From positions 1-64,000 of the forward strand of contig CAVRJG010000042.1 in NCBI GenBank assembly GCA_963721455.1: a stretch of 64,000 bases of DNA, written 5' to 3'. This document shows, piece after piece, positions 24,682 to 42,660 of this stretch. The notes beneath the pieces are model-generated. The model made no database searches, was not told the origin of the DNA, and saw nothing but the letters and a program-made list of their open reading frames with translations. Within the stretch, counting starts at the first letter, position 1. Each line of letters begins with the position of its first letter. The position numbers and the translations under genes are program-made. Origin of the DNA: an uncultured Methanosarcinaceae archaeon (lineage in GTDB: Archaea > Halobacteriota > Methanosarcinia > Methanosarcinales > Methanosarcinaceae).

Positions 24682-25185
24682 ATGAAAGCACAACTTGAAC
24701 AGCGTTTAACGGAGCTAAGGGCAGAATACGAATCAGGACAGAAAATCCTGAAAGATATCGAGTTAAAGCTTACGGAACTTGAAGACCGAAAGAAAATCCT
24801 GAACGAAACCCTCCTCAGGATTAGCGGGGCAATCGACTTACTTGAAGAAGTACTGGAAGTAAACGAAGGCACGAAGGGGCCAGAAACTAGGGAAGGTCCC
24901 GGAACTACCGCAGAAAGTGTAGAGACTCCGGATGTCATAAGGCAGTCCCTTGAGAAAGCCATGAAAACTCTGGAAGAAGCGGGGCTTACGGCAGGAGAGG
25001 TCATTGAACAAAGAGGTGTTCTTCCTATAGGGGTTATGATTGGAGAAGTGCTCAGGCAGGAGCCGAAGCCAGGGACAAGATCACCAGCCGGATCGGCTGT
25101 AAAGCTTGTAGTTGCAGCAAAAGGCAAGTTTTTGCCTCCAGTTGATAGAAATTCAGTGTGCGGCTCTTTTTCCGACCGCAACTGA
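24682..25185 (+). CDS. Coiled-coil + PASTA domain protein
   Basis: N-terminal coil ending TLLRISGAIDLLEE; PASTA pattern PDVIRQSLEKAMKTLEEAGL...VLRQEPKPG...VKLVV. Confidence 0.75.
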   Translation: MKAQLEQRLTELRAEYESGQKILKDIELKLTELEDRKKILNETLLRISGAIDLLEEVLEVNEGTKGPETREGPGTTAESVETPDVIRQSLEKAMKTLEEAGLTAGEVIEQRGVLPIGVMIGEVLRQEPKPGTRSPAGSAVKLVVAAKGKFLPPVDRNSVCGSFSDRN

Positions 25186-26422
25186 ACAGAGGACAAAGGA
25201 GGGCTTTAAAACGGAGGCTTATTCCAGAATAAACGGTTCCCTGGGCGAACTCAGGGAACATTGCAGGGCAGCGATTTCAGCCTTTACCACGCTTGAGCGT
25301 TCAGAGAGCCAGGTATCCTTGAGGCTCTGCCTGCTAAAATTCCTCAATGAATGTGAGGGTGTTTCAAAGGTTCTATGGAATAGCAATGACAAAAAACTCA
25401 GGAAGCACCTTAGATCCGTGCTTTCAATCCCAGGCGATTTCCCTTTTTCTCCTGCGGCTTTCTCCGGACTGGAAGCAGTGGCTAAAGGAATGGAAAAGAC
25501 TGGAGGAATAGAGAAAACCCTGAAAGATAAAGGCAAGGGGAATAAACCGGAAGAAAATCCCGGTCACAGGGAATCGGCAGCCTTCTTCTATGATCCGGGA
25601 ACAAGGTTACTTACATTTGACGGGAAAAACTATGAAATCCTGCCTCTTTTCCTGGCTGCCAGGAAACTTTATGCTTCCCTCCCGCTCTTCGAAGAGCTTG
25701 AGGCCTGCACTGAAATGCTTGAACGGAATCCTCAGGACGCCACAGCCCTCTTCCAGAAAGCTGTGCTCCTGTATAAGGCCAGGCGGTTTGAAACTGCCCT
25801 GCAGCTTACTGCGCAGGTGCTGGGAATTGTTCCTGACGATTACAGAGTCTGGTACAACAGGGGTGTTATCTTCCTGGAAATGGGGCGGCTTGAGGAGGCG
25901 ATTGCGGCTTACGACAGGGCAATTGAGCTTGAACCGGCTTTTAAAATTGCCTGGGACAACAAAGGAGTTGCTCTTTCCAGGCTTGGCAGGTTTGAAGAGG
26001 CGCTTGAAACCTACGAAAAAATCCTACTGAAATATCCCGAGTATGCTGAAGCCTGGGCAGGAAAAGGCTCGGTCCTTTCGATCCTTGGCAGGAAAGAAGA
26101 AGCTCTTGAGGCTTACAGTTCGGCCCTCAAAATCAGGCCTGATTACCCTGAAGCCCTGACGTGCACCGGAAGCCTGCTTTCCAGGCTTGGCAGGCTTAAG
26201 GAAGCTCTGGCAGCATACGATAGGGCTCTTAAGCTTTCCCAAACAGATCCAGTGCTCTGGGCAGGCAGGGGTTTTGTCCTGTTAGAATCGAATGAATACG
26301 AAAAAGCACTGCAAAGCTGCAACAGAGCCCTCGAATTGAAACCGGGTTTTGCTCCTGCGCTCGAAATAAAGGTAAGAGTCCTTTCGGGGATCAGCCGGCA
26401 AAAGGCAAGGGCTTCTCAGTAA
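25112..26422 (+). CDS. Tetratricopeptide repeat protein (start uncertain)
   Basis: About six TPRs (WYNRGV..LEEAIAAYDRAIEL; WAGKG..EALEAYSSAL). Confidence 0.85.
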   Translation: MQQKASFCLQLIEIQCAALFPTATEQRTKEGFKTEAYSRINGSLGELREHCRAAISAFTTLERSESQVSLRLCLLKFLNECEGVSKVLWNSNDKKLRKHLRSVLSIPGDFPFSPAAFSGLEAVAKGMEKTGGIEKTLKDKGKGNKPEENPGHRESAAFFYDPGTRLLTFDGKNYEILPLFLAARKLYASLPLFEELEACTEMLERNPQDATALFQKAVLLYKARRFETALQLTAQVLGIVPDDYRVWYNRGVIFLEMGRLEEAIAAYDRAIELEPAFKIAWDNKGVALSRLGRFEEALETYEKILLKYPEYAEAWAGKGSVLSILGRKEEALEAYSSALKIRPDYPEALTCTGSLLSRLGRLKEALAAYDRALKLSQTDPVLWAGRGFVLLESNEYEKALQSCNRALELKPGFAPALEIKVRVLSGISRQKARASQ

Positions 26423-26636: not shown

Positions 26637-27272
26637 GTGGTAAAAGCCTGGAAGGTGTCCGGAATGAACTTTCACCGGAAAAGCGAGGATTCCGAAATGA
26701 CAGAAGAAAGTGAAACTGCAAAAATGAACAGTGTAAAGCGAAAGGAGCTTGAACCGGCAGGAAAAACCGGAGAACCAGAGAATCCAGGGCAGCTCCTTAT
26801 AAAGGCTAGCGAGACTGACAATTACGAAGACAAGCTCAGGCTGTATGATGAAGCTTTAGCTCTGGATCCTCTGTATGTCAATGCATGGATTCAGAAAGGT
26901 TTTGCATTGGACAGGATGGAAAGATCAAAAGAAGCTCTTGTCTGCTATGACAGGGTTCTTGAACTCGATCCTGAAAACCTGGGAGTCAGGTGCCTCAAGG
27001 GTCTTGCTTTCTATAACTTAAAGGAGTTTGAAAAGTCGGTAGAGTGTTATGATGAAGTCCTGAAGTTTAATCCAGATGATTTATTTTCATGGTATCGGAA
27101 AGGTTCAGCCCTGGAAAGCCTGGGAAATTACGGGAAAGCCATGGAGTGTTATGACAAAGCTCTTGAGATCGATCCGGCAGATGCTCTTATCAGGGAGAAA
27201 AAAATGGAGCTCCTGAAACTTATTTATAAGAAAGGAACTTTAGAGAACTCTCCTGACAGCGGCTTTAACTGA
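26637..27272 (+). CDS. Tetratricopeptide repeat protein
   Basis: TPR units AWIQKGFAL..EALVCYDRVL; WYRKGSAL..AMECYDKAL. Confidence 0.85.
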   Translation: MVKAWKVSGMNFHRKSEDSEMTEESETAKMNSVKRKELEPAGKTGEPENPGQLLIKASETDNYEDKLRLYDEALALDPLYVNAWIQKGFALDRMERSKEALVCYDRVLELDPENLGVRCLKGLAFYNLKEFEKSVECYDEVLKFNPDDLFSWYRKGSALESLGNYGKAMECYDKALEIDPADALIREKKMELLKLIYKKGTLENSPDSGFN

Positions 27273-31902: not shown

Positions 31903-32024
31903 TATAGGACTTACGCAGTTGAACTGAGAAATCAATAGCATTAAACCTCCAACTGTATAAAACATTGAACCCGTCACAAAGCCGAATGTGCATGATTTTG
32001 TACATCGAGTGCGTAAGTCCTATA
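31903..32024. mobile_element. MITE with TAGGACTTACGCA terminal inverted repeats
   Basis: TATAGGACTTACGCA...TGCGTAAGTCCTATA; related copies at 38027 and 53452. Confidence 0.85.
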
Positions 32025-32035
32025 TTTGCAAACAT

Positions 32036-35000
32036 TTACGGTAAATTTGAAAATGTCTTGTGATAAGGCTTATCACCCATATACTTTTTCCATTCCTCTG
32101 GTGTAAGATTCCGGGTTAAATGACTGCTGGCTCCGCTTATAAGATCTTCTATATTGCCATATATCCACAACCTTGCTTTATTGTCAGCACTCGCCGTTGC
32201 CATATATTTTCCATCAGGACTGAACACAACATCATTTACCAGACCATCATGTTTCAGAACAGTAATTTGTTTACCTGTAGATACATTCCATAAACGTGCT
32301 TTGTTGCCACCACTCGCCGTTGCGATATCTCTTCCATCAGGACTGAAAACAACAGCAAGTACCGGACCATCATGGTCCATAACAAAAATTTTTTCACCTG
32401 TAGGGGCATTCCATAAACTTGCTGTGCTGTCACGACTCGCCGTTGCGACATATTTTCCATCAGGACTGAACACAACTTTATACACCCAACCATAATGTTT
32501 CAAAATAGAAATTCGTTCACCTGTAGATGCATTCCATAAACTTGCTGTGCTGTCACGACTCGCCGTTGCGATGTATTTTCCATCAGGACTGAACACAACT
32601 TTGTTCACCCAACCATAATGTTTCATATCAAAAATTTGTTTACCTGTAGATGCATTCCATAAACTTGCTGTTTTGTCAGAACTCGCCGTTGCGATATATT
32701 TTCCATCCGAACTGAAATTAATATCATTTACTGAACCATTATGATTCAGAACAAAAATTTTTCCACCTGTAGATACGTTCCATAAACTTGCTGTGCTGTC
32801 ACGACTCGCCGTTGCGATATATTTTCCATCAGGACTGAAAACAACATTATTCACCCCACCAGCATGGTTCAAAACAAAAATTTGTTTACCTGTTGATGCA
32901 TTCCACAAGCGTGCTGTATTGTCCCAACTCGCCGTAGCAACATATTTTCCATCAGGACTGAACACAACATTACTCACCAAACCATCATGTTTGAGAGGAG
33001 CAAAAATTTGTTCACCTGTAGATGCATTCCATACGCGTGATGTACTGTCATTGCTCGCCGTTGCGATGTATTTTCCATCAGGACTGAACACAATTTTAAA
33101 CACCTTATCATCATGGTTCAGAACATCAGATTCTGTAGATGCATCCCATAAACGTGCTGTTTTGTCATTGCTCGCTGTAGCGACGTATTTTCCATCAGGA
33201 CTGAACACAACATTATTTACCACACTATCATGGTTCAGAACAAAAATTTGTCTACCTGTAGATGCGTCCCATAAACTTGCTGTGTTGTCAGAACTCGCTG
33301 TAGCGACGTATTTTCCATCAGGACTGAATACAACATTATTTACCGGACCGTCATGAATCCGAACAAAAATTTGTTCACCTGTAGCTGCATCCCATACGCT
33401 TGAGGTGTTGTCAGCACTCGCCGTTGCGATGTATTTTCCATCAGGACTGAACACAACTTTAAACACCCTATCATAATGTTTCATATCAAAAATTTGTTTA
33501 CCTGTAGCTGCATTCCATAAACTTGCTGTTTTGTCAGAACTCGCCGTTGCGATATATTTTCCATCCGAACTGAAATTAACATCATTTACCGAACCATTAT
33601 GATTCAGAACAAAAATTTGTTTACCTGTAGCTGCATCCCATACACGTGATGTATTGTTAGCACTCGCTGTAGCGATGTATTTTCCATCAGGACTGAATAC
33701 AACATTATTTACCGGACCATTATGTTTGAGATGATCAAAAATTTGTTTACCTGTAGCTGCATCCCATAAACGTGCTTTGTTGCCACTACTCGTCGTTGCG
33801 ATGTATTTTCCATCAGGACTGAATACAACATTATTTACCGGACCATCCAGGTCCAAAACAAAAATTTGTTTACCTGTAGCTGCATCCCATACGCTTGATG
33901 TATTGTCAGTACTCGCCGTTGCGATGTATTTTCCATCAGGACTGAATACAACATTATTTACCTGACCATCATGGTTCAAAACAAAAATTTGTTTACCTGT
34001 AGCTGCATCCCATAAACGTGATGTATTGTCAGCACTCGCCGCAGCAATGTATTTTCCATCAGGACTGAACACAACATTTAATACCGGACCATCGTGTTTC
34101 AGAACCACAACGCTATGAGGTATGAGTAATAATCCCTGACGTATTAACTGATCAGCATCCAATGTTCTATGAATTCTAAATGATTCGATAGCAAGAAGAA
34201 CACTTTTATCTAGATTCCTGGGATCTCCTTGGAGAAGGCTGGATTTTAAATTTAAATCATCCGAAGCACGGACTTGCTGTTTCTGCTGCTCAGCCTGATA
34301 CCATTGATAGGCTGCAAATCCAGCTAGAATTAAAACAATAATGGAAAAGGCTTTAAGTATTTTTATATTGCGGCTTTTTCTCCGTTCTTTCTCTGCCCAT
34401 TCTTTCTCTGCCCATTCTTTCTCTACCCGTTCTTTCTCTACCCGTTCTTTCTCTGCCCATTCTTTCTCTGCCCATTCTTTCTCTACCCGTTCTTTCTCTG
34501 CCCGCTCTTTCTCTGCCAGTTCATCATTAAAAACCTTGTTAGAAGATAGTATCGGTTCGATAAACCTGTCGTGTGTCAGTTCATACCAGCGCGCACCTGC
34601 CCGCCACTCTGCTCTAATAAGGCGCATGCTTTCAAGCACATCAATGGCTGTATTAGGAACACCGCCAGTTGACTCTTGAGCCCGGTACACCATCCCTCGC
34701 GTCCCCATCGCCGTTATCAACACTTCACCACACAATGTGCGCAGGCTCTTCTCATCAATGCGTGCCTTCTCTGCCGCTGCCCTTATAGCCTCTTCGTAAA
34801 ATCTGAAAAGTTCCTGTTCTACATTTCCATAGGTTTTCAGGTGCTGAAATGTGATTTGCCTTTCATCTGGCGGTAACTCCCGCCAGAGGTTCTGGCATAC
34901 TACCTGAAGTTGCACAGCCTCTATGAACTCTCCTGTTACCTCAGCGGTCTTGCCTGGTATTGTCTCAACTCGAATCTTCAGCAAATCATCGACAAGTTTT

Positions 35001-35707
35001 TCTGCCACTCCTTCTGCAAAAGAGCGACCAGTATCTCTCAACGGCCCTTTGATTGCCAGCAGTGCAGCCCCACTGCGCAGGCGCTCCATGTGAAAACGCG
35101 TCCGCAATCTTTCGGGCAGAAGATCTGTATACGGGTCTAGCTGAGCTATGAAATCCTCCCGCATGACAAAAACCACCCTTAAAAGGGGATCTGCTTCCAG
35201 AGCAGTGCTTACTTGCTCAAAGAATCCCTCTCTATCTTTCCAGCGGTCTTGATACAAAGAGAATATTTCCTCAAACTGATCGAAGATGACGACACGGGGT
35301 AAAGGCATGCCATCTTCATCCTGCATACGCTCCTGCCTATTCAAAAAATCAACAAGTTTCATTTTAGCCAGGCGCTCAACATCATATTCACCTTCAGTCC
35401 AGCTTGTGAGAGTATTAAAGACAAATATGTTCGCAATCTCGTCAGTTTTTATGTTTTTCAAAGGTGTGCCTTTAACTCGCGCCACCGGGAAAACTTCAAA
35501 CTGGTTTTCCTTCAGGAGAGGAATAAGCCCGGCATTGATAAGTGAAGTCTTACCCGCCCCCGACTGGGCATAGACGAGAACCAGATTATGTGCAATGACT
35601 ATGGACAGGAGATCTCGAGCTTCACGGCCCCTTCCGAAAAAAATGGCTTTATCTTTCTGTTCAAAAGGTTGAGGGCCCACGTAAGCCTGGAATTCAAGTG
35701 CCACCAT
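32036..35707 (-). CDS. nSTAND1-type NTPase + coiled coil + TM helix + 16 WD40 repeats
   Basis: FFGR, Walker A AQSGAGKTS, Walker B VVIFDQFEEIF, MREDF, YELTHD; TM ILKAFSIIVLILAGFAAY; repeats H.G.V..VVFSPDGKYIATAS.D..A.LW. Confidence 0.92.
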   Translation of the reverse strand: MVALEFQAYVGPQPFEQKDKAIFFGRGREARDLLSIVIAHNLVLVYAQSGAGKTSLINAGLIPLLKENQFEVFPVARVKGTPLKNIKTDEIANIFVFNTLTSWTEGEYDVERLAKMKLVDFLNRQERMQDEDGMPLPRVVIFDQFEEIFSLYQDRWKDREGFFEQVSTALEADPLLRVVFVMREDFIAQLDPYTDLLPERLRTRFHMERLRSGAALLAIKGPLRDTGRSFAEGVAEKLVDDLLKIRVETIPGKTAEVTGEFIEAVQLQVVCQNLWRELPPDERQITFQHLKTYGNVEQELFRFYEEAIRAAAEKARIDEKSLRTLCGEVLITAMGTRGMVYRAQESTGGVPNTAIDVLESMRLIRAEWRAGARWYELTHDRFIEPILSSNKVFNDELAEKERAEKERVEKEWAEKEWAEKERVEKERVEKEWAEKEWAEKERRKSRNIKILKAFSIIVLILAGFAAYQWYQAEQQKQQVRASDDLNLKSSLLQGDPRNLDKSVLLAIESFRIHRTLDADQLIRQGLLLIPHSVVVLKHDGPVLNVVFSPDGKYIAAASADNTSRLWDAATGKQIFVLNHDGQVNNVVFSPDGKYIATASTDNTSSVWDAATGKQIFVLDLDGPVNNVVFSPDGKYIATTSSGNKARLWDAATGKQIFDHLKHNGPVNNVVFSPDGKYIATASANNTSRVWDAATGKQIFVLNHNGSVNDVNFSSDGKYIATASSDKTASLWNAATGKQIFDMKHYDRVFKVVFSPDGKYIATASADNTSSVWDAATGEQIFVRIHDGPVNNVVFSPDGKYVATASSDNTASLWDASTGRQIFVLNHDSVVNNVVFSPDGKYVATASNDKTARLWDASTESDVLNHDDKVFKIVFSPDGKYIATASNDSTSRVWNASTGEQIFAPLKHDGLVSNVVFSPDGKYVATASWDNTARLWNASTGKQIFVLNHAGGVNNVVFSPDGKYIATASRDSTASLWNVSTGGKIFVLNHNGSVNDINFSSDGKYIATASSDKTASLWNASTGKQIFDMKHYGWVNKVVFSPDGKYIATASRDSTASLWNASTGERISILKHYGWVYKVVFSPDGKYVATASRDSTASLWNAPTGEKIFVMDHDGPVLAVVFSPDGRDIATASGGNKARLWNVSTGKQITVLKHDGLVNDVVFSPDGKYMATASADNKARLWIYGNIEDLISGASSHLTRNLTPEEWKKYMGDKPYHKTFSNLP
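34381..34518 (-). repeat. 15-bp coding tandem repeat (EKERA/EKERV/EKEWA x9)
   Basis: TTCTTTCTCTGCCCA / TTCTTTCTCTACCCG units in frame. Confidence 0.9.
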
Positions 35708-36596
35708 TGAAAACCTCCCATCGTGTTCTCAATTCTGCGGCAAATTCGCGGCAATCCTGCCAGTATACTTTGATATCAAGTTCTTCAAAAGAGCGATCCA
35801 GATATTTCTGAGCTTTTTCTTTTTGGGCCTCAGAAATATCCCCTGGCACGAGCTGCACGGATAGGTGCTTTCTCCTAGTACTTATTTCTAAGTATCCAGC
35901 AAGAATCCGGAAAAGAACATGGAAATCCCAATCAGCTATCCTGTAGCCTAGAAAAAGAAGAGATGAGTCTGTAAATGCCTCCTGAATACGCAGCGGAAGC
36001 ATGTTTTGTTCCATTGAAATGGCCGCAAGGAAGTCCAGATAGTCATACTCTGTTAGAACCAGCGACTCTGGTATTTCATAGCAGCCATGTAGGTGAAATA
36101 CTAAAGGTTTTTCTGGAGTGTAAACGCAGTCTGATGACGTTAGTTTGAATCGCTTGAGGTATTTATTCCACCTACATATTTCCTGGTTTGGTGTTTTGCC
36201 ATGGCTTTCAAGAGCTCGCATCATAAGGTCATCGTAATTTGTGGTAATATAAACTGGCAGTGGGAGATCGGCTAGCAATCCGTGAGGTTCATCAGGAATT
36301 TCAAAGTATTTTGTTGTGACTTCTTTTAACTGTTCTTTGATTTTTTTACACATCTCTTCCTTTGGAGTCATAGCGTCTTCGGTCACAGCCACAAACTGAG
36401 CCACCCGTATCAAGTCATATGAGTCTGCCATTGGGTAGTCGTACTTTTTTGCCCATTCACTTGCAATCTGGGAACCAACAGGAATCTTCCCGGCACTAAC
36501 TCCAGCTCCAAGAAATGGAGTACACTTCCCATCCTTGATTCTCTGAAGAAGGCGTTCCCAATCCTTCTCTTCCAGCCTATTTGGCATTACTAACAC
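35694..36596 (-). CDS. Stand-alone SIR2-like (SIR2_2) domain protein, putative NADase effector
   Basis: PFLGAGVS, YITTNYDDL, VFHLHG, LVLTEYDY, LLFLGY motifs; stop overlaps start of the NTPase gene. Confidence 0.88.
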   Translation of the reverse strand: MLVMPNRLEEKDWERLLQRIKDGKCTPFLGAGVSAGKIPVGSQIASEWAKKYDYPMADSYDLIRVAQFVAVTEDAMTPKEEMCKKIKEQLKEVTTKYFEIPDEPHGLLADLPLPVYITTNYDDLMMRALESHGKTPNQEICRWNKYLKRFKLTSSDCVYTPEKPLVFHLHGCYEIPESLVLTEYDYLDFLAAISMEQNMLPLRIQEAFTDSSLLFLGYRIADWDFHVLFRILAGYLEISTRRKHLSVQLVPGDISEAQKEKAQKYLDRSFEELDIKVYWQDCREFAAELRTRWEVFNGGT

Positions 36597-37317
36597 CCTC
36601 CACCAGGTTGAATCCCTTTCTCAATTTTTTTCGTGTTTATCCTCCTTACTCACCTGCTGTCTTGAATCCTGCCCTTCACCTGCCTTTGTAAACACTGTCT
36701 CAGCTATATCTTGAAGTTTGAGCGCAGCCTGTACTGAGAACAGGCCTACCAGGGCAGAAAGAGCTACAAAGCCAAACGGGCTTGTTTGCTGAATCGTTGC
36801 CTGAGGAAAGAGCCCACCGCGGATTGCAATATAAAAAATAAGCCCGAGCGTTGCCCCGGTAACTGGTAAAAGAGTGTACATGGCAAGCCAGCTCAATATT
36901 AGTTCACGATTACCTACATACCAATAGAAAGATCGAAGAGCATGAACTAAACTCCCAAGAGCACCAGCTAATGCAACAATGAGGAACATTCGTCCTTCAT
37001 ACGAAATCGTGACTGGCCAGAGGAAGAAAGTCACTGGCAAATTCACTGGCAAATTTGAAGAGTTCACCGGTGGGCACGCTGGCTCTTGAGGTGGCCAAAA
37101 TTGCACAAGACTGTAGACGATATTACAGAGAGCAGAAGAAGGTAAGTCATGGTCAAGACAATACCTGTAGGTCCTACAAATCTATCGCCTGGTCCCTCTG
37201 CTGGATTTGTTGGATATGCAATAAACTCTTTACTGTCTTTTTTATCTATATCCTTCTTTACGATTAATTCATCGGTTTTTTCGGCGATTTTAACATTCAT
37301 CTTGCCTTTATCAGCTT

Positions 37318-37490
37318 CTAGTGCATCGATTTCAAATTAGGGGGATAAAAATGGACTTTGAAATCAACACTTGTGAAAGAGTTTCCCATAGAAAACTGCA
37401 GATGGACACGGGTAAACACGAATTGAAACCATCTGTGTTCATCTGTGTTTATCCTGGGTTTATTGAGGATATATGGAATCGATGCACTAG
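37318..37490. mobile_element. MITE inserted at a CTAG site
   Basis: CTAGTGCATCGATT...AATCGATGCACTAG; no coding capacity. Confidence 0.85.
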
Positions 37491-37589
37491 TATGAGGAAA
37501 ACAGTGCTCTTTCCATCAGTTATTTTGATCGTTTTTGCATCAGTTTTTTCGATTTTTGCTGTTAGTGACAATTTTGGATCATAATTATG

Positions 37590-37765
37590 GTATCCTCTTC
37601 AAATTGTATGGGTAAAAGTAAATTTCACATATTTGCTGAAAAATTAATAATTTAACTATGTTTAAAAAACAGCATCTTGAGATGCATTCAACTTTAGAAC
37701 TGTATGACAGAATTATTGCATATTTTTCTGGTTGGAAAATTCTCCCTTGAATTTGAAGAGGATAC
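37590..37765. mobile_element. MITE with 16-bp TIR and 8-bp target-site duplication
   Basis: GTATCCTCTTCAAATT...AATTTGAAGAGGATAC flanked by TAATTATG at 37582-37589 and 37766-37773. Confidence 0.9.
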
Positions 37766-37911
37766 TAATTATGAATTATAAATTCTATAATTCGTTTTTT
37801 ATCTTTTTCTGTAACTTCTTCCCATTTGACTTCATCCCACCTGAACAAATGTTCTTTAAGCCCTACCATCACATTTTCTCCGTTCAATATTTAATGGAAT
37901 AATTAGAGGCT

Positions 37912-38143
37912 CTCTTAAAATTCAAACCATTTCCCCAATTGGATAATGAGCAACATTAACTTAAAATTTAGATCATAAATTCTCTGAAATTCAGGTTACA
38001 TTGACCTTAAGGCATCACTTTCCCCCATAGGACTTACGCACTCGAAGTATATAATGAAGTGCAGTAAACATTAAATGCTACCGTTTTTCGGTTCAAATGC
38101 ATGAGTACTATCCCAGTTGTAGGATCAAGTTTAATTTTAAGAC
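37912..38143. mobile_element. MITE-like element (TCTTAAAATT ends) with nested TAGGACTTACGCA-type MITE at ~38027-38111
   Basis: TCTTAAAATTCAAACCATTT...AATTTTAAGACA; homologous partial copy at 57744-57830. Confidence 0.6.
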
Positions 38144-38674
38144 ATATATTAATTATTTGTAATGTAATGGCTTAGGCAATGAATAATTTAGTTGAAGTTA
38201 AATCAGCCATCTCACTCATGAAAGTTACTTAATACATTCTTAAATACTGCTTATGTTATTTAGCCGCAGATTTGAAGTGTATTTTGGAAATAACTTCAAT
38301 CACATAATAGGGGACAACAGTCTTTTTTCAGTATTGTTTTATTTTTAGTGATATATCTCCTCCAATTTCCCGATTTACCTATCCAATTTTTATATTAATC
38401 TTTTTTTATCTATTTCCCTTTTTTTTCCCTGACATTTCTTTTTTCCTCAGGCAATTTTACGGGGCCCCATGTCTTAGATTTTTATCAAAGTATGGGATTT
38501 CCGGGCGCAGGCAGACCTATGGACGAAACAGACAAAGATAAGTTCAGGTTTATTTTTCAGAACATATATTTCAAAATCTTTTTATTATCTCAAATTATTA
38601 TTCTTACGAGTTATTATAAAAACAGAAGTAGTTTTTCTATCTATATAATTTAAAATTAAGGGGAGTATTGGTTC

Positions 38675-39873: not shown

Positions 39874-40545
39874 TCACTTACTTCCTGCCTTTTCCAGTTC
39901 TCCCCTTATATTTTCTACAGTCTTCCAGGACTGCCTGACAATATTGGGAAACTCTCCTGAGTGTTCTTTTCCCCATTTCAGCAGAAATTCTTTTGTTTTC
40001 GGGTCTGAGGGGTAGCCGCTTCCGAAATCTACGCCCCATTCTTTCTTGAGTTCTTCGATCCGTTCATCCCTGCGCACCTTTGCAATAATAGAAGCTGCCG
40101 AGACCGTGGGATAAATTGCATCGGCCTGATGCATGGAAATTATCTCTATTTTCTTTGCGTGATCAGGACTTGTTTTCGCATACTGCCTGCGGAGATTGTC
40201 TGCAAAACGCTCAGCTTTGACATCAGCAGCATCAACATATACCAGATCAGGCTTTAGCTGTTCAAACACTTTTGCAAAACAGACCACCATGATCTCGTTC
40301 ATTGTCATGATCTTTCGGAGTTCGTCAATCTGAGAAGGGCCGACCTCAAGGACAAAAAAGCCGTCCGCGTGTTTTTTTATCTGGGCTGCAAGCTGCTCCC
40401 TTTTTTTCGGCGTCAGTTTCTTTGAGTCCGCAACCCCTAGCACCCTGAGGATATGGGCTTTCGACTCCTCGATTTTTACGCCTCCTATGCACATTGGCCC
40501 GATTACAGGTCCTTTTCCGGCTTCATCTATTCCTGCGATCATCAT
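39874..40545 (-). CDS. rnhB: Ribonuclease HII (archaeal type)
   Basis: IAGIDEAGKGPVIGPM, DSKKL, VSAASIIAKV, GSGYPSDP; real start MMIAG at 40545. Confidence 0.95.
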   Translation of the reverse strand: MMIAGIDEAGKGPVIGPMCIGGVKIEESKAHILRVLGVADSKKLTPKKREQLAAQIKKHADGFFVLEVGPSQIDELRKIMTMNEIMVVCFAKVFEQLKPDLVYVDAADVKAERFADNLRRQYAKTSPDHAKKIEIISMHQADAIYPTVSAASIIAKVRRDERIEELKKEWGVDFGSGYPSDPKTKEFLLKWGKEHSGEFPNIVRQSWKTVENIRGELEKAGSK

Positions 40546-40574
40546 TCTCTGTCTGCCTCCTGATTTGACGAAAG

Positions 40575-42660
40575 AGAGATGTGGATGTTCAGGGCCAAGT
40601 GCTTTTTCTGTGATTTCCAAGGCACGGATATACAGAGGTTCGGCTTCAGAATACCTGCCCAAATCGCTATAAACTGACGCTAGATTATTAAGGCGATTAC
40701 CTACATCTGGATGTTCAGGGCCCAAGTGCTTTTTTTGTAATTTCCAAGGCACGGATATAGCAGAGGTTCGGCTTCAGAATACCTGCCCAAATCGTCAATA
40801 AACTGCCGCTAGATTATTAAGGCGATTACCTACTGCATCGGATGTTCAAATTAATTGCATATTTTTTTCATATCGTAATTCCACAGGGAATCTTATCTTT
40901 TTCTTCAACTTTATATTTCCACATAAATATCACAGGTTCCTCATTGAGTAAATTTATGTATTGAGCAATCCTATCCTTCAATTCCTCTGCAGATTATACT
41001 CTTATTGCCCTTAAAAAGCTTCTAATCATTTTGCTGAAGAAACTTTCAATAATATTCAACATCTGGATGTTCAGGGCCAATGACTTTTTTGTAATTTCCA
41101 AGGCACGGTTAGAGGTTGGCTTCAGTTTCTTCTAAATGTGTACTCCGTAGTTATTAAGGCGAATACCTACGTCTGGATGTTCAGGGCCAAGTGCTTTTTC
41201 TGTGATATTCAATGCGCGGATTCGTAGTGGTTCGGCTTTTGAAGGTCGCCCTAAATCTCTATAAACTCCAGCCAAGTTATCGAGACTCTCTGCTATGGCC
41301 GGATCATCTGTAATTTAAGACAGTTTCCCGAATTTCTAATGCACGCGCATGTAGTGGTTCAGCTTCAGAGTACCTACCCAAAATCCTATAAAGTTGCGCT
41401 AACTTGTTAAGACTCTCTGCTATAGCTGGATCATCTGAATTTAATGTATTTTCTCGAATCTCTAATGCACGCAAGTATAGTGGTTCGGCTTCGGAGTACC
41501 TGCCTAAATCGCTATAAAGCTCCCCTAGATTATTGAAACTCTCAGAGATATCAAAATGTTCGGATTCCAGAACTTTCTTTCGAATCTCCAATGAACTTTT
41601 CAAGAGCGACTCACTTTCCTTAAAAAGTGCACGTTCATGCAGGTAGCTGCCAGTTGCATTTAGCAATTTTGCAGATTCTTCAGTTTCTATATCCCATAGC
41701 CCAATATATTCTGCACAGGTCTGAGCATGTGGAAGAAGCTTATCGCAAACGTTCCCAATTTTCATACTTAACTTCAGGAAATGCACAGTTTACAGCTTTA
41801 ACAACACGTTCAGCCCAGAGTCTCTGTTCACTTTTTACCATTCCGTCTCTAAGAACAGCCTGTACAAGACGGTGAATGTCATAAGTATGGGAACCAGCAT
41901 TCACGATTGATTAAAGAGTACTGCCATAGTGGTTTGAGAACTTCATCAAAAACGAGAGGATCTGTATCAACCTCATCAAAATGTGGCAGAAATTAATGGT
42001 CCTAACTCGTCCGCACCTTTGTAAATAATTTCTGCATGGTATCTCATGGGGATTCAGAAAAGCACTTGCAAATAAAATATCTGCGGATACTTCTGAACTT
42101 TTCTTCACCTCCTCGAAGTTCATCAACCATGTGGTAGATATCAGATTCTGGATATTCATTCTTATCAATATGAGACTTTTCCAATAACTTTAGACCACGT
42201 ATTTTATAACTGGCAGAATAATCTTTAAAACTAGAATTGTTTACATAAATATAGGCTCCTGCTTGTTCTAAAGCCAATGGGAGACAACCAAGTTCATGTA
42301 CCAGTTTATCAAGCGCTTCGAGTTCTGATTGATCTAGTTCTGATTGATCTAGTTTGATATCTAGTTCTGATTGGTCTAGATTAGCACGCCCTGTACGCTT
42401 CAGGAGGAAACTCTTAGCTTCATGAGGGGACATCTCCTTTATTTTAACCAATTTTATAATCTTTAATGAATGAAAAACTGGTGCTCTTGAAGTCAGGAGA
42501 ATGTGTCCTTTTGGATTTGGAGGTAGAAATTTCTTTACAAAAGAAACGTCGCAAATTCCGTTTTCATTTATTAAAGCTTGCTCTTTTTCATGACAATAAG
42601 ATTTTTCCAGAACACTATCAAACACTTCCTGAAACAAAAGCATTAAATCTAAAGTTGAGT
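40575..42660 (-). pseudogene. Degraded NB-ARC + kinesin-light-chain-type TPR gene fragment (both ends missing)
   Basis: GHILLTSR, ELGCLPLALEQAGAYI, HRLVQAV, repeats LNNLA.VYSDLGRYSEAEPLY.RALEI.EKALGPEHP; many indels. Confidence 0.8.
40885..41062 (-). mobile_element. IS630-family transposase C-terminal fragment inside the TPR region
   Basis: Manual translation LNIIESFFSKMIRSFLRAIRV*SAEELKDRIAQYINLLNEEPVIFMWKY. Confidence 0.65.

Follow-up and report, generated by a model that had tools for sequence, protein, structure and literature searches.

A SIR2 gene paired with a predicted membrane-spanning nSTAND1 receptor: a candidate conflict cassette in a Methanosarcinaceae archaeon and in bacteria

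In the defense system Avs5 (AVAST type 5), a SIR2 NADase is governed by a STAND NTPase that carries its sensor at the C terminus, according to the abstracts of two reports (PMC11897194; 10.1101/2025.07.08.663546). Here we analyze a locus of comparable makeup in a 64,000-nucleotide (nt) stretch (the window) of contig CAVRJG010000042.1 (GCA_963721455.1), which derives from an uncultured Methanosarcinaceae archaeon. The locus consists of three co-oriented genes on the minus strand, encoding, in transcription order, a membrane protein, a SIR2 protein, and an nSTAND1 NTPase whose catalytic module is separated from a WD40 array by a predicted transmembrane (TM) helix. The likeness to Avs5 extends to members of the present family in which SIR2, NTPase, and sensor are fused in the same order (P0162 and P0165; P and L numbers denote the proteins and loci of our surveys). 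Unlike in Avs5, the SIR2 of the window is encoded by a gene of its own, the NTPase falls in the nSTAND1 clade without matching any Avs model in PADLOC, and a TM helix lies between NTPase and sensor; moreover, the sensors of this family are WD40, TPR, or FGE-like, as opposed to the helical sensor of Avs5. The N-terminally fused effector by which Avs proteins are recognized is thus absent from the window and present in its fused relatives.

Other described systems share individual features with the locus. The nSTAND1 family was named in PMC8195603 (Kaur, Iyer, Burroughs, and Aravind, eLife 2021), whose accessible passages describe conflict systems with the same Pfam NTPase, variable effectors, and repeat- or FGE-type C termini; those systems carry fused effectors or EAD/Death-like adaptors, whereas none is detected on either protein here. 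The same passages, which leave out the figures and source data, contain no separate SIR2 or TM-anchored sensor and mention SIR2 once, in another context. SIR2 did not turn up in the accessible part of PMC7159879 (Kaur 2020), which describes EACC1 as having a single conserved TM helix and a caspase-fused partner. EACC1 was considered as the identity of the window's membrane gene and rejected, given that the family of the latter has four helices.

Membrane topology has been raised for STAND sensors in two further contexts. The sensors diversified by diversity-generating retroelements (Doré et al., PNAS 2024, PMC10907252) combine, in the passages available, nSTAND1 or NACHT with a C-terminal FGE/CLec domain, and the CLec domain of one NACHT target is predicted to be periplasmic. 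One relative of our NTPase (L003) similarly has the architecture nSTAND1-TM-FGE-sulfatase; in contrast to those systems, the window contains neither a retroelement nor a CLec domain, and the effector is SIR2. The available passage of a recent preprint (bioRxiv 10.1101/2025.11.14.688446) notes "transmembrane STAND ATPases," and hence membrane-spanning STAND sensors, in defense contexts. That mention is made in passing and, unlike the present case, concerns sensors of Pepco-associated proteases that are protease fused, with Pepco as the effector and without SIR2; the passage holds no analysis of their topology or family.

The closest solved SIR2 domains are those of Thoeris ThsA, Kongming KomC, and DSR2, from which the locus differs in overall composition. 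The cassette has neither the SLOG domain nor the ThsB/TIR gene of Thoeris, it lacks the KomA and KomB genes of Kongming, and its SIR2 protein is 300 amino acids (aa) long, as opposed to the approximately 1000 to 1200 aa of DSR1 and DSR2 with their large C-terminal sensor. Neither the NTPase nor the membrane protein is represented by a PADLOC model, the only matches of the NTPase being to HEAT-ARM_XIII (in the WD40 region) and PDC-M06A. The literature searched, which excludes figures and preprint supplements, describes no pair of SIR2 and a TM-containing nSTAND1 protein. Since no PADLOC model or literature description matches, the initial impression that the arrangement is not a named system holds; judged from its sequence, the system would be an undescribed STAND/SIR2 defense variant with a separate SIR2 and a TM-anchored sensor.

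The NTPase gene (positions 32036 to 35707, minus strand) encodes a 1223-aa protein with nSTAND1 and WD40 domains (Pfam E values of 2.8e-39 and 1.6e-136) that is predicted to serve as receptor and switch. The SIR2 gene (35694 to 36596, minus strand) is an intact open reading frame (ORF) of 300 aa with a SIR2_2 domain (Pfam E value of 4.8e-25), predicted to be an NADase effector. The end of the SIR2 gene and the beginning of the NTPase gene share 14 bp, and a gap of 24 bp (36597 to 36620) separates SIR2 from the membrane ORF. The tight packing, shared orientation, and positions of the three genes reported in a first-pass annotation of this DNA are all borne out.

Within the NTPase, the nSTAND1 module spans residues 9 to 384 (34556 to 35683, minus strand) and is predicted to be cytoplasmic. 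It scores 136.3 bits against PF20703 (cutoff, 27.1), covering profile positions 2 to 342 of 379, and is the sole nSTAND1 match in the 3.94-Mb genome of this archaeon. Because the match begins at residue 9, there is no fused N-terminal effector, as the first-pass annotation had noted. The residues of Walker A (G50, G52, K53, and S55) and Walker B (D143, Q144, E146, and E147) are invariant in 40 sequences, in keeping with the proposed STAND switch, and the ratio of nonsynonymous to synonymous substitution rates (dN/dS) of the N-terminal domain in comparisons with relatives is 0.14 to 0.23. A profile of the NTPase matched no PDB sequence, and NCBIfam returned only beta-propeller matches, all below threshold.

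The remainder of the protein consists of a charged stalk, a single predicted TM helix, and the repeat array. The helix (residues 448 to 466; 34310 to 34366, minus strand) has a Kyte-Doolittle (KD) 19-mer score of 2.21 and is flanked by six lysines and arginines on the N-terminal side and two on the C-terminal side. Immediately before it stands a stalk of approximately 11 EKE(R/W)(A/V) pentapeptides (34367 to 34546, minus strand), encoded by 15-nt tandem repeats (family D3, nine copies); the position of the helix differs among close relatives (residues 421 to 460), so stalk length may vary. After the helix come 16 WD40 repeats of 39 to 42 aa (32135 to 34105, minus strand; a 123-nt repeat family of 16 copies), two propellers' worth, which form the predicted extracytoplasmic sensor. 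The number of repeats is the same by Pfam stretches and by motif count, and their alignment reveals an almost invariant scaffold with variation centered on a few loop positions. The N-X-S/T sequons number 17 after the helix and 0 before it (residues 1 to 447), against 8.8 ± 2.6 in shuffled sequences; the repeats being non-independent, this bias hints weakly that the array lies outside the cell and is glycosylated.

A single TM helix after the NTPase module is a hallmark of the family. We surveyed proteins of at least 650 aa for a 19-mer with a KD score of at least 1.6 downstream of the module and counted charges in 15-residue flanks. The segment occurs in 51 of 53 related NTPases, a few of which come from duplicate contigs, with KD scores of 1.8 to 3.3. 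Lysines and arginines average 5.5 in the N-terminal flank and 2.3 in the C-terminal flank, and the N-terminal flank has more in 49 of the 51. A profile search of 1.84 billion representatives returned 9448 proteins at an E value of ≤1e-30, the best 150 of which (clusters at 50% identity) were examined: all score above 579 bits and nearly all start with the NTPase module. Of these, 134 reach 650 aa or more, and among them exactly one TM segment is present in 116 and several in 7. The TM helix that was first proposed is thus conserved across the family, and the flanking charges fit a predicted topology with the N terminus inside and the C terminus outside.

What follows the helix varies. The C-terminal parts of 12 related NTPases comprise WD40 repeats (six proteins), TPR repeats (three), an FGE-sulfatase domain (one), and unnamed regions (two). 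In four close relatives (P0219, P0268, P0304, and P0361), the sensor is replaced by a multipass membrane domain of 3 to 7 predicted terminal TM segments.

The SIR2 protein scores 88.7 bits against SIR2_2 (PF13289; cutoff, 24.5). Its residues N120 (motif TTNYD) and H170 (motif HLHG), which, following work on ThsA and DSR2, we take to be catalytic, are invariant in 13 SIR2 sequences. By profile, its closest relatives of solved structure are KomC (E value of 7.5e-28), ThsA (7.4e-24), and DSR2 (7.6e-18). The PADLOC ThsA1 model matches the SIR2 part only (E value of 5.6e-21; profile positions 11 to 237 of 478), the Dsr1 and Dsr2 models reach E values of merely 1.7e-5 and 1e-3, and the NCBIfam Dsr2 model gives 18 bits against a cutoff of 1400. 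Overall dN/dS is 0.15 to 0.52. The protein is therefore probably a defense-type NADase-like effector, with its activity predicted from the two invariant residues and the nearest profiles, much as the first-pass annotation supposed. Its description as a "split" SIR2 was correct insofar as the gene is separate from that of the NTPase; the ORF itself is unbroken and of a length in line with that of its orthologues (290 to 327 aa), and the broken gene is the membrane gene.

SIR2 and the NTPase form a near-obligate pair that makes up the conserved core of the system, and the membrane gene is an optional accessory. A SIR2-centered metagenome scan confirmed at least 555 relatives, from which 77 loci were derived, a few on duplicate contigs. 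Among the matches listed, the NTPase gene comes immediately after SIR2 in 62 of the 65 loci for which 300 nt or more of downstream sequence is available; the membrane gene is upstream of the pair in 8 of 46 loci and downstream in 3 of 23, and is present in 5 of the 16 with both flanks visible; and in 21 of the 77 loci two or more ORFs match SIR2, mostly tandem paralogues along with a few fragments. A scan centered on the membrane protein, with one genome per species, gave 102 relatives and 80 retained loci, of which 11 contain both SIR2 and the NTPase. These 11 occur in Chloroflexota, Planctomycetota, Bacteroidota, Verrucomicrobiota, Geobacteraceae, and Methanoperedens, in the order membrane-SIR2-NTPase (L008, L014, L022, L026, L028, L047, and L054), in the order SIR2-NTPase-membrane (L006, L016, and L075), or with two genes between the membrane gene and the pair (L002). 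The NTPase is the commonest cross-phylum neighbor family of the membrane gene (13 loci), other recurrent neighbors reflecting lineage synteny. The surveys thus replace the conserved triad that the first-pass annotation had envisaged with a conserved pair.

Fused proteins tie the two members of the pair together functionally. A search for long proteins containing this SIR2 gave 85 matches, 2 of which are fusions in the order SIR2-nSTAND1-TM-sensor, P0162 (1034 aa) and P0165 (1542 aa, with WD40 repeats); the existence of such same-order fusions argues that SIR2 is the effector of this STAND. Of 22 matches inspected, 18 join a different nSTAND1 clade at the N terminus to this SIR2 clade at the C terminus, and one NB-ARC-TPR-SIR2 protein is 78% identical to the SIR2 of the window. 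By precomputed Pfam domains, the 85 also include many SIR2-CHAT and a few SIR2-trypsin and SIR2-TIR proteins. In the nine same-genus loci (L168 to L176), the usual effector is a protein of 508 to 542 aa (e.g., L169:8931 to 10475, minus strand), and all four of these effectors that were run through Pfam are fusions of SIR2 to CHAT, a caspase-like protease (28 to 34 bits; cutoff, 24). This pattern suggests effector swapping, perhaps with proteolytic control.

Further arrangements were seen in the same genus and its surroundings. Some same-genus loci have a second short SIR2, or fragments, between the SIR2-CHAT gene and the NTPase, and the closest metagenome relative of the locus (L081, 2292 to 13873) has two tandem SIR2-NTPase copies plus a SIR2-CHAT gene. 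Neither the SIR2-CHAT protein of L169 nor the membrane protein homologue P0002 had any match in NCBIfam.

The cassette shows signs of horizontal acquisition. In the window it is embedded among housekeeping genes: asnB, purS, and purQ precede it in one direction, and a NosD-like gene and RNase HII adjoin it in the other. The distance from purQ to the NosD-like gene is 6793 nt, whereas in three of five complete same-genus genomes without SIR2, purQ is followed by the NosD-like gene and RNase HII after only 322 to 569 nt, confirming the proposed insertion (of approximately 6.8 kb) after purQ. In 13 related loci, the flanking genes of the window are absent from the vicinity of the system; the cassette sits at other chromosomal sites in relatives. 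SIR2 was found in 7 of 34 genomes of the genus that were searched and in 10 of 151 genomes of the family (the window's own genome counted), and the system occurs in several bacterial phyla and in Methanoperedens. No sequencing run contained more than 46% of the sampled words, and all runs were contigs, which are uninformative on expression in this strain; a related SIR2 is covered in a soil RNA library, such coverage being no proof of transcription, and stretches lacking coverage carry no meaning.

We consider it moderately probable that the locus is a horizontally acquired conflict or defense cassette comprising SIR2 and a membrane-anchored nSTAND1 NTPase with an outward-facing sensor. The anatomy of the cassette, its conservation, its Walker and catalytic residues, the gene pairing, and the insertion are established here; topology, NADase activity, trigger, and immune role are predictions. 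In this cassette, SIR2 and the NTPase would be translationally coupled and would reside, SIR2 together with the NTPase module, in the cytoplasm, with the hypervariable C-terminal array (here, 16 WD40 blades) outside. Binding of a surface ligand to the propellers, be it part of a virion, a protein secreted or displayed by a foreign cell, or an envelope component that has been disturbed, would send a signal across the TM helix and charged stalk, whereupon the NTPase would exchange its nucleotide and oligomerize. The bound SIR2 would then be switched on, NAD+ would be depleted, and the cell would be arrested or killed. The membrane protein would be an optional holin-like accessory, possibly a membrane-permeabilizing coeffector.

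The membrane gene of the window is broken. Its C-terminal part of 161 aa (36621 to 37106, minus strand), which belongs to a holin-like family and has no Pfam match, and its N-terminal part of 78 aa (37064 to 37300, minus strand) lie in different frames; a single homologue, P0002 (232 aa, 78% identical), aligns across the two. A one-base deletion near 37121 to 37126 causes the frameshift, full length being approximately 230 aa. A metagenome contig that is 98% identical over 36697 to 37121 has one extra base at the lesion and keeps the frame, hinting, from a single contig at a depth of approximately 5, that the lesion is recent or an assembly error. Together with the elements inserted ahead of the gene (described below), the frameshift indicates that this copy may be partly decayed. 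Two of the nine same-genus loci retain membrane-gene remnants, of 71 and 95 aa, and none was found in the other seven; L081 has only a remnant of 89 aa.

The membrane family is widespread and largely without annotation. We found 185 homologues, and none of the 120 listed belongs to a Pfam family; the sole fused forms found carry C-terminal IPT/TIG domains. An AlphaFold2 model of P0002 (pLDDT of 78.7) has four long TM helices, with a beta-hairpin within the first loop, matches no PDB structure in Foldseek at an E value of ≤0.001, and matches only unnamed clusters in the ESM Atlas. In a tree of 86 membrane proteins, members linked to the SIR2-NTPase pair are scattered, often beside stand-alone genes of their own phylum. 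The pair-link label requires 11 changes on this tree (mean of shuffled labels, 15.7; 2 of 500 shuffles as low), ruling out a single clade of triad-linked genes, with the qualification that some loci scored as alone are on short contigs and may be misclassified. The association of membrane gene and pair thus appears to have arisen or been lost repeatedly, and one Brocadia-Methanoperedens pair of membrane genes points to a transfer.

Away from the pair, this family looks holin-like because it occurs directly upstream of endolysin-like genes without signal sequences. In nine loci without the pair (L017, L031, L037, L058, L063, L070, L071, L073, and L077; Acidobacteriota-type genomes), the membrane gene is followed, in the same orientation, by a gene for a peptidoglycan hydrolase of the Amidase_2, Amidase_3, GH19, or M15 family or, in L077, for a peptidoglycan-binding endolysin-like protein. 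By hydropathy, none of the nine has a hydrophobic N-terminal signal segment. All eight of the proteins compared with PHROGs (L073 was left out) match endolysin families, most strongly phrog_880 (E values of 1e-49 to 1e-53), phrog_181 (up to 2e-69), and phrog_6523 (2e-35), with a short L063 fragment giving only a weak match (phrog_435, 1.7e-6). No phage structural genes were seen around these nine loci, and the membrane gene and its endolysin-like neighbor may be a chromosomal holin-autolysin module. The likeness to holin-endolysin cassettes has limits: the window has no hydrolase or endolysin, and its host, an archaeon, is not expected to have murein. For the initial proposal that the membrane protein acts as a pore, the support is indirect, coming from the position of the gene in other lineages.

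The surroundings of the membrane gene vary in other ways. In one Dehalococcoidia locus (L056), the membrane gene is accompanied by a divergent SIR2 while the NTPase is missing, and an apparent SIR2 match by phmmer in L078 proved to be an enoyl-CoA hydratase. In Anaerolineae (L002, L003, L005, L007, L009, and L015), varying small genes lie downstream of the membrane gene (DUF4760, NUDIX, and unnamed proteins of approximately 245 aa), a site that may be a variable hotspot.

As first annotated, the locus is bracketed by miniature inverted-repeat transposable elements (MITEs). A complete 122-bp element with 15-nt terminal inverted repeats (31903 to 32024; inverted repeat I3) lies 11 bp from the NTPase stop; the genome of this archaeon contains 43 matches to it. 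On the other side, two copies (37317 to 37492 and 37590 to 37765, with copies elsewhere in the genome that are 83 to 99% identical) separate the start codon of the membrane gene from a conserved noncoding upstream region (37766 to 38264). Positions 37766 to 38131 of this region are common to relatives (86% nt identity to L081), and further repeats within it (37903 to 38071 and 38150 to 38264) have copies elsewhere in the genome; window positions 36900 to 37766 are lacking in L081. The AT-rich intergenic segment from 37310 to 38670 (29 to 32% GC) is altogether a patchwork of short repeats of four or more distinct kinds, each present in many copies genome-wide, some 99% identical. The first-pass annotation ended the locus at 37869; no gene starts there, and a small ORF at that point (37765 to 37890) was rejected as a gene, having stops in relatives and not being conserved as coding sequence.

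Beyond the cassette, the RNase HII ORF of the window (39874 to 40752, minus strand) carries an N-terminal TPR_10 repeat. The RNase HII proteins of relatives align only from about residue 57 to 68 onward, and the TPR part may thus be an ORF-calling artifact or a recent fusion. Stand-alone TPR proteins are encoded close by (41304 to 41786, minus strand; 25112 to 26422 and 26637 to 27272, plus strand).

Several observations weigh against the cassette being a working, outward-facing defense system. None of the PADLOC models for Avs, bNACHT, and other STAND proteins matches the NTPase, and its kinship with proven antiviral STANDs is therefore at the superfamily level only. Defense-type neighbors do speak for the cassette, since PADLOC, applied to 140 of 244 neighbor proteins from 22 loci, gave 18 matches at an E value of ≤1e-8 in nine loci (among them Dpd, MADS, a restriction-modification methylase, PDC-S31, TIR, HEC-01, LmuA, and MzaA); the count has no baseline, however, and some matches are generic folds (radical SAM, AAA+, and TnpB). 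The dN/dS of SIR2 in comparisons with close relatives is 0.39 to 0.52, which suggests relaxed or diversifying evolution. The topology is predicted from hydropathy and the positive-inside rule, and a TM segment is missing from L028 and L154 (the former being a Methanoperedens locus with a TPR sensor and the closest relative outside the genus) and from 11 of the 134 representatives drawn from the best 150 of the 9448, so that for some members a sensor in the cytoplasm suffices. As for the membrane gene, it is absent from most SIR2-NTPase loci among the matches listed, is frameshifted in the window, and has a dN/dS of 0.64 against the L081 remnant; its family has no PHROG holin match (1 of 30 members gave a weak match to an unnamed PHROG family, with an E value of 0.0029), and no relatives were found in IMG/VR. 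Finally, the promoter may have been cut by the two MITEs that part the first start codon from the upstream region shared with relatives.

The last of these points bear on whether this copy is simply a decaying remnant, nonfunctional in this strain whatever the family does elsewhere. The frameshifted first gene, the MITEs at 37317 to 37765 that split the genes from their conserved upstream region, and the retention of mere membrane-gene remnants in same-genus relatives speak for decay, which we nevertheless regard as rather unlikely: neither the repeat-rich ORF of 1223 aa nor that of SIR2 is broken, the NTPase has a dN/dS of approximately 0.2, most family members do without the membrane gene, and the 98%-identical metagenome contig (one contig at a depth of approximately 5) has an intact frame. 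Were the hydrophobic segment a tether, or not membrane spanning at all, the WD40 array could instead sense a cytoplasmic viral protein in the manner of classical intracellular Avs-like sensors. The members without a segment (L028, L154, and 11 of the 134 representatives) fit this alternative, as does the cytoplasmic location of the TPR and WD40 sensors of characterized STANDs in the accessible passages of PMC12803255. The segment is, however, strongly hydrophobic (KD scores of 1.8 to 3.3) at a conserved position, and the charge bias is consistent (higher on the N-terminal side in 49 of 51). With one pass, the membrane would separate the N-terminal from the C-terminal part, the NTPase requiring cytoplasmic nucleotide, and the sequon counts (17 versus 0) lean the same way, weakly since the repeats are not independent; an intracellular sensor is on these grounds improbable.

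The same machine might serve another conflict. Fungal NACHT-WD40 proteins of the HET-E type enforce incompatibility, and the propellers here might likewise recognize neighboring cells or secreted proteins rather than virions, with NAD+ depletion enforcing incompatibility. The predicted extracytoplasmic position of the sensor, the 16 near-identical repeats varying at few loop positions, the lack of membrane-gene relatives in the viral contigs of IMG/VR, and the link of related NTPase conflict systems to multicellular prokaryotes in the passages available from PMC7159879 and PMC8195603 all accord with such a role. Against these stand the defense genes near 9 of 22 loci, the grouping of the SIR2 clade with antiphage NADases, and the many hosts among uncultured bacteria, which are not known to be multicellular. 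Such cell recognition (allorecognition, kin discrimination, or anticompetitor surveillance in an aggregate-forming methanogen) seems to us of low probability. STAND proteins also include transcriptional and signaling regulators, and a transmembrane STAND could relay an environmental signal to a SIR2 deacylase or ADP-ribosyltransferase acting on a housekeeping target. Apart from the general existence of STAND regulators, this non-immune alternative can point to the housekeeping flanks of the window (asnB, purS, purQ, and RNase HII). We consider it very unlikely in light of the membership of SIR2 in the SIR2_2/ThsA/KomC/DSR2 group and not among classical sirtuins, the patchy distribution and horizontal transfer of the system, its hypervariable sensors, and the fusion of the SIR2 clade to CHAT, TIR, and trypsin effector modules.

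A membrane-anchored STAND that reports on the cell exterior to a SIR2 effector remains our preferred reading of the locus. To our knowledge, all characterized prokaryotic STAND/NLR-like defenses sense invaders in the cytoplasm. It is conceivable, though we advance this only tentatively, that the family represents a large, cross-domain class of membrane-spanning NLR-like receptors that would read ligands outside the cell and signal inward to an NADase, with a holin-like executioner recruited from lysis cassettes in some lineages. The ligands of such receptors might, as an equally tentative suggestion, be virions that have yet to deliver their genome, cells of other kinds, or a damaged envelope. 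The family comprises more than 150 clusters at 50% identity above 579 bits and at least 555 SIR2-linked loci, with its sensor consistently behind one membrane pass. If the predicted topology is true, these proteins would be NLR-type receptors that survey the cell exterior, combining the logic of a surface receptor with that of an NLR, and would raise the questions of what surface ligand is bound, how a STAND signals across a membrane, and whether NAD+ is depleted before a viral genome is injected. The holin-like character of the accessory gene would also provide a first functional lead for membrane proteins of a family that is widespread but lacks annotation.

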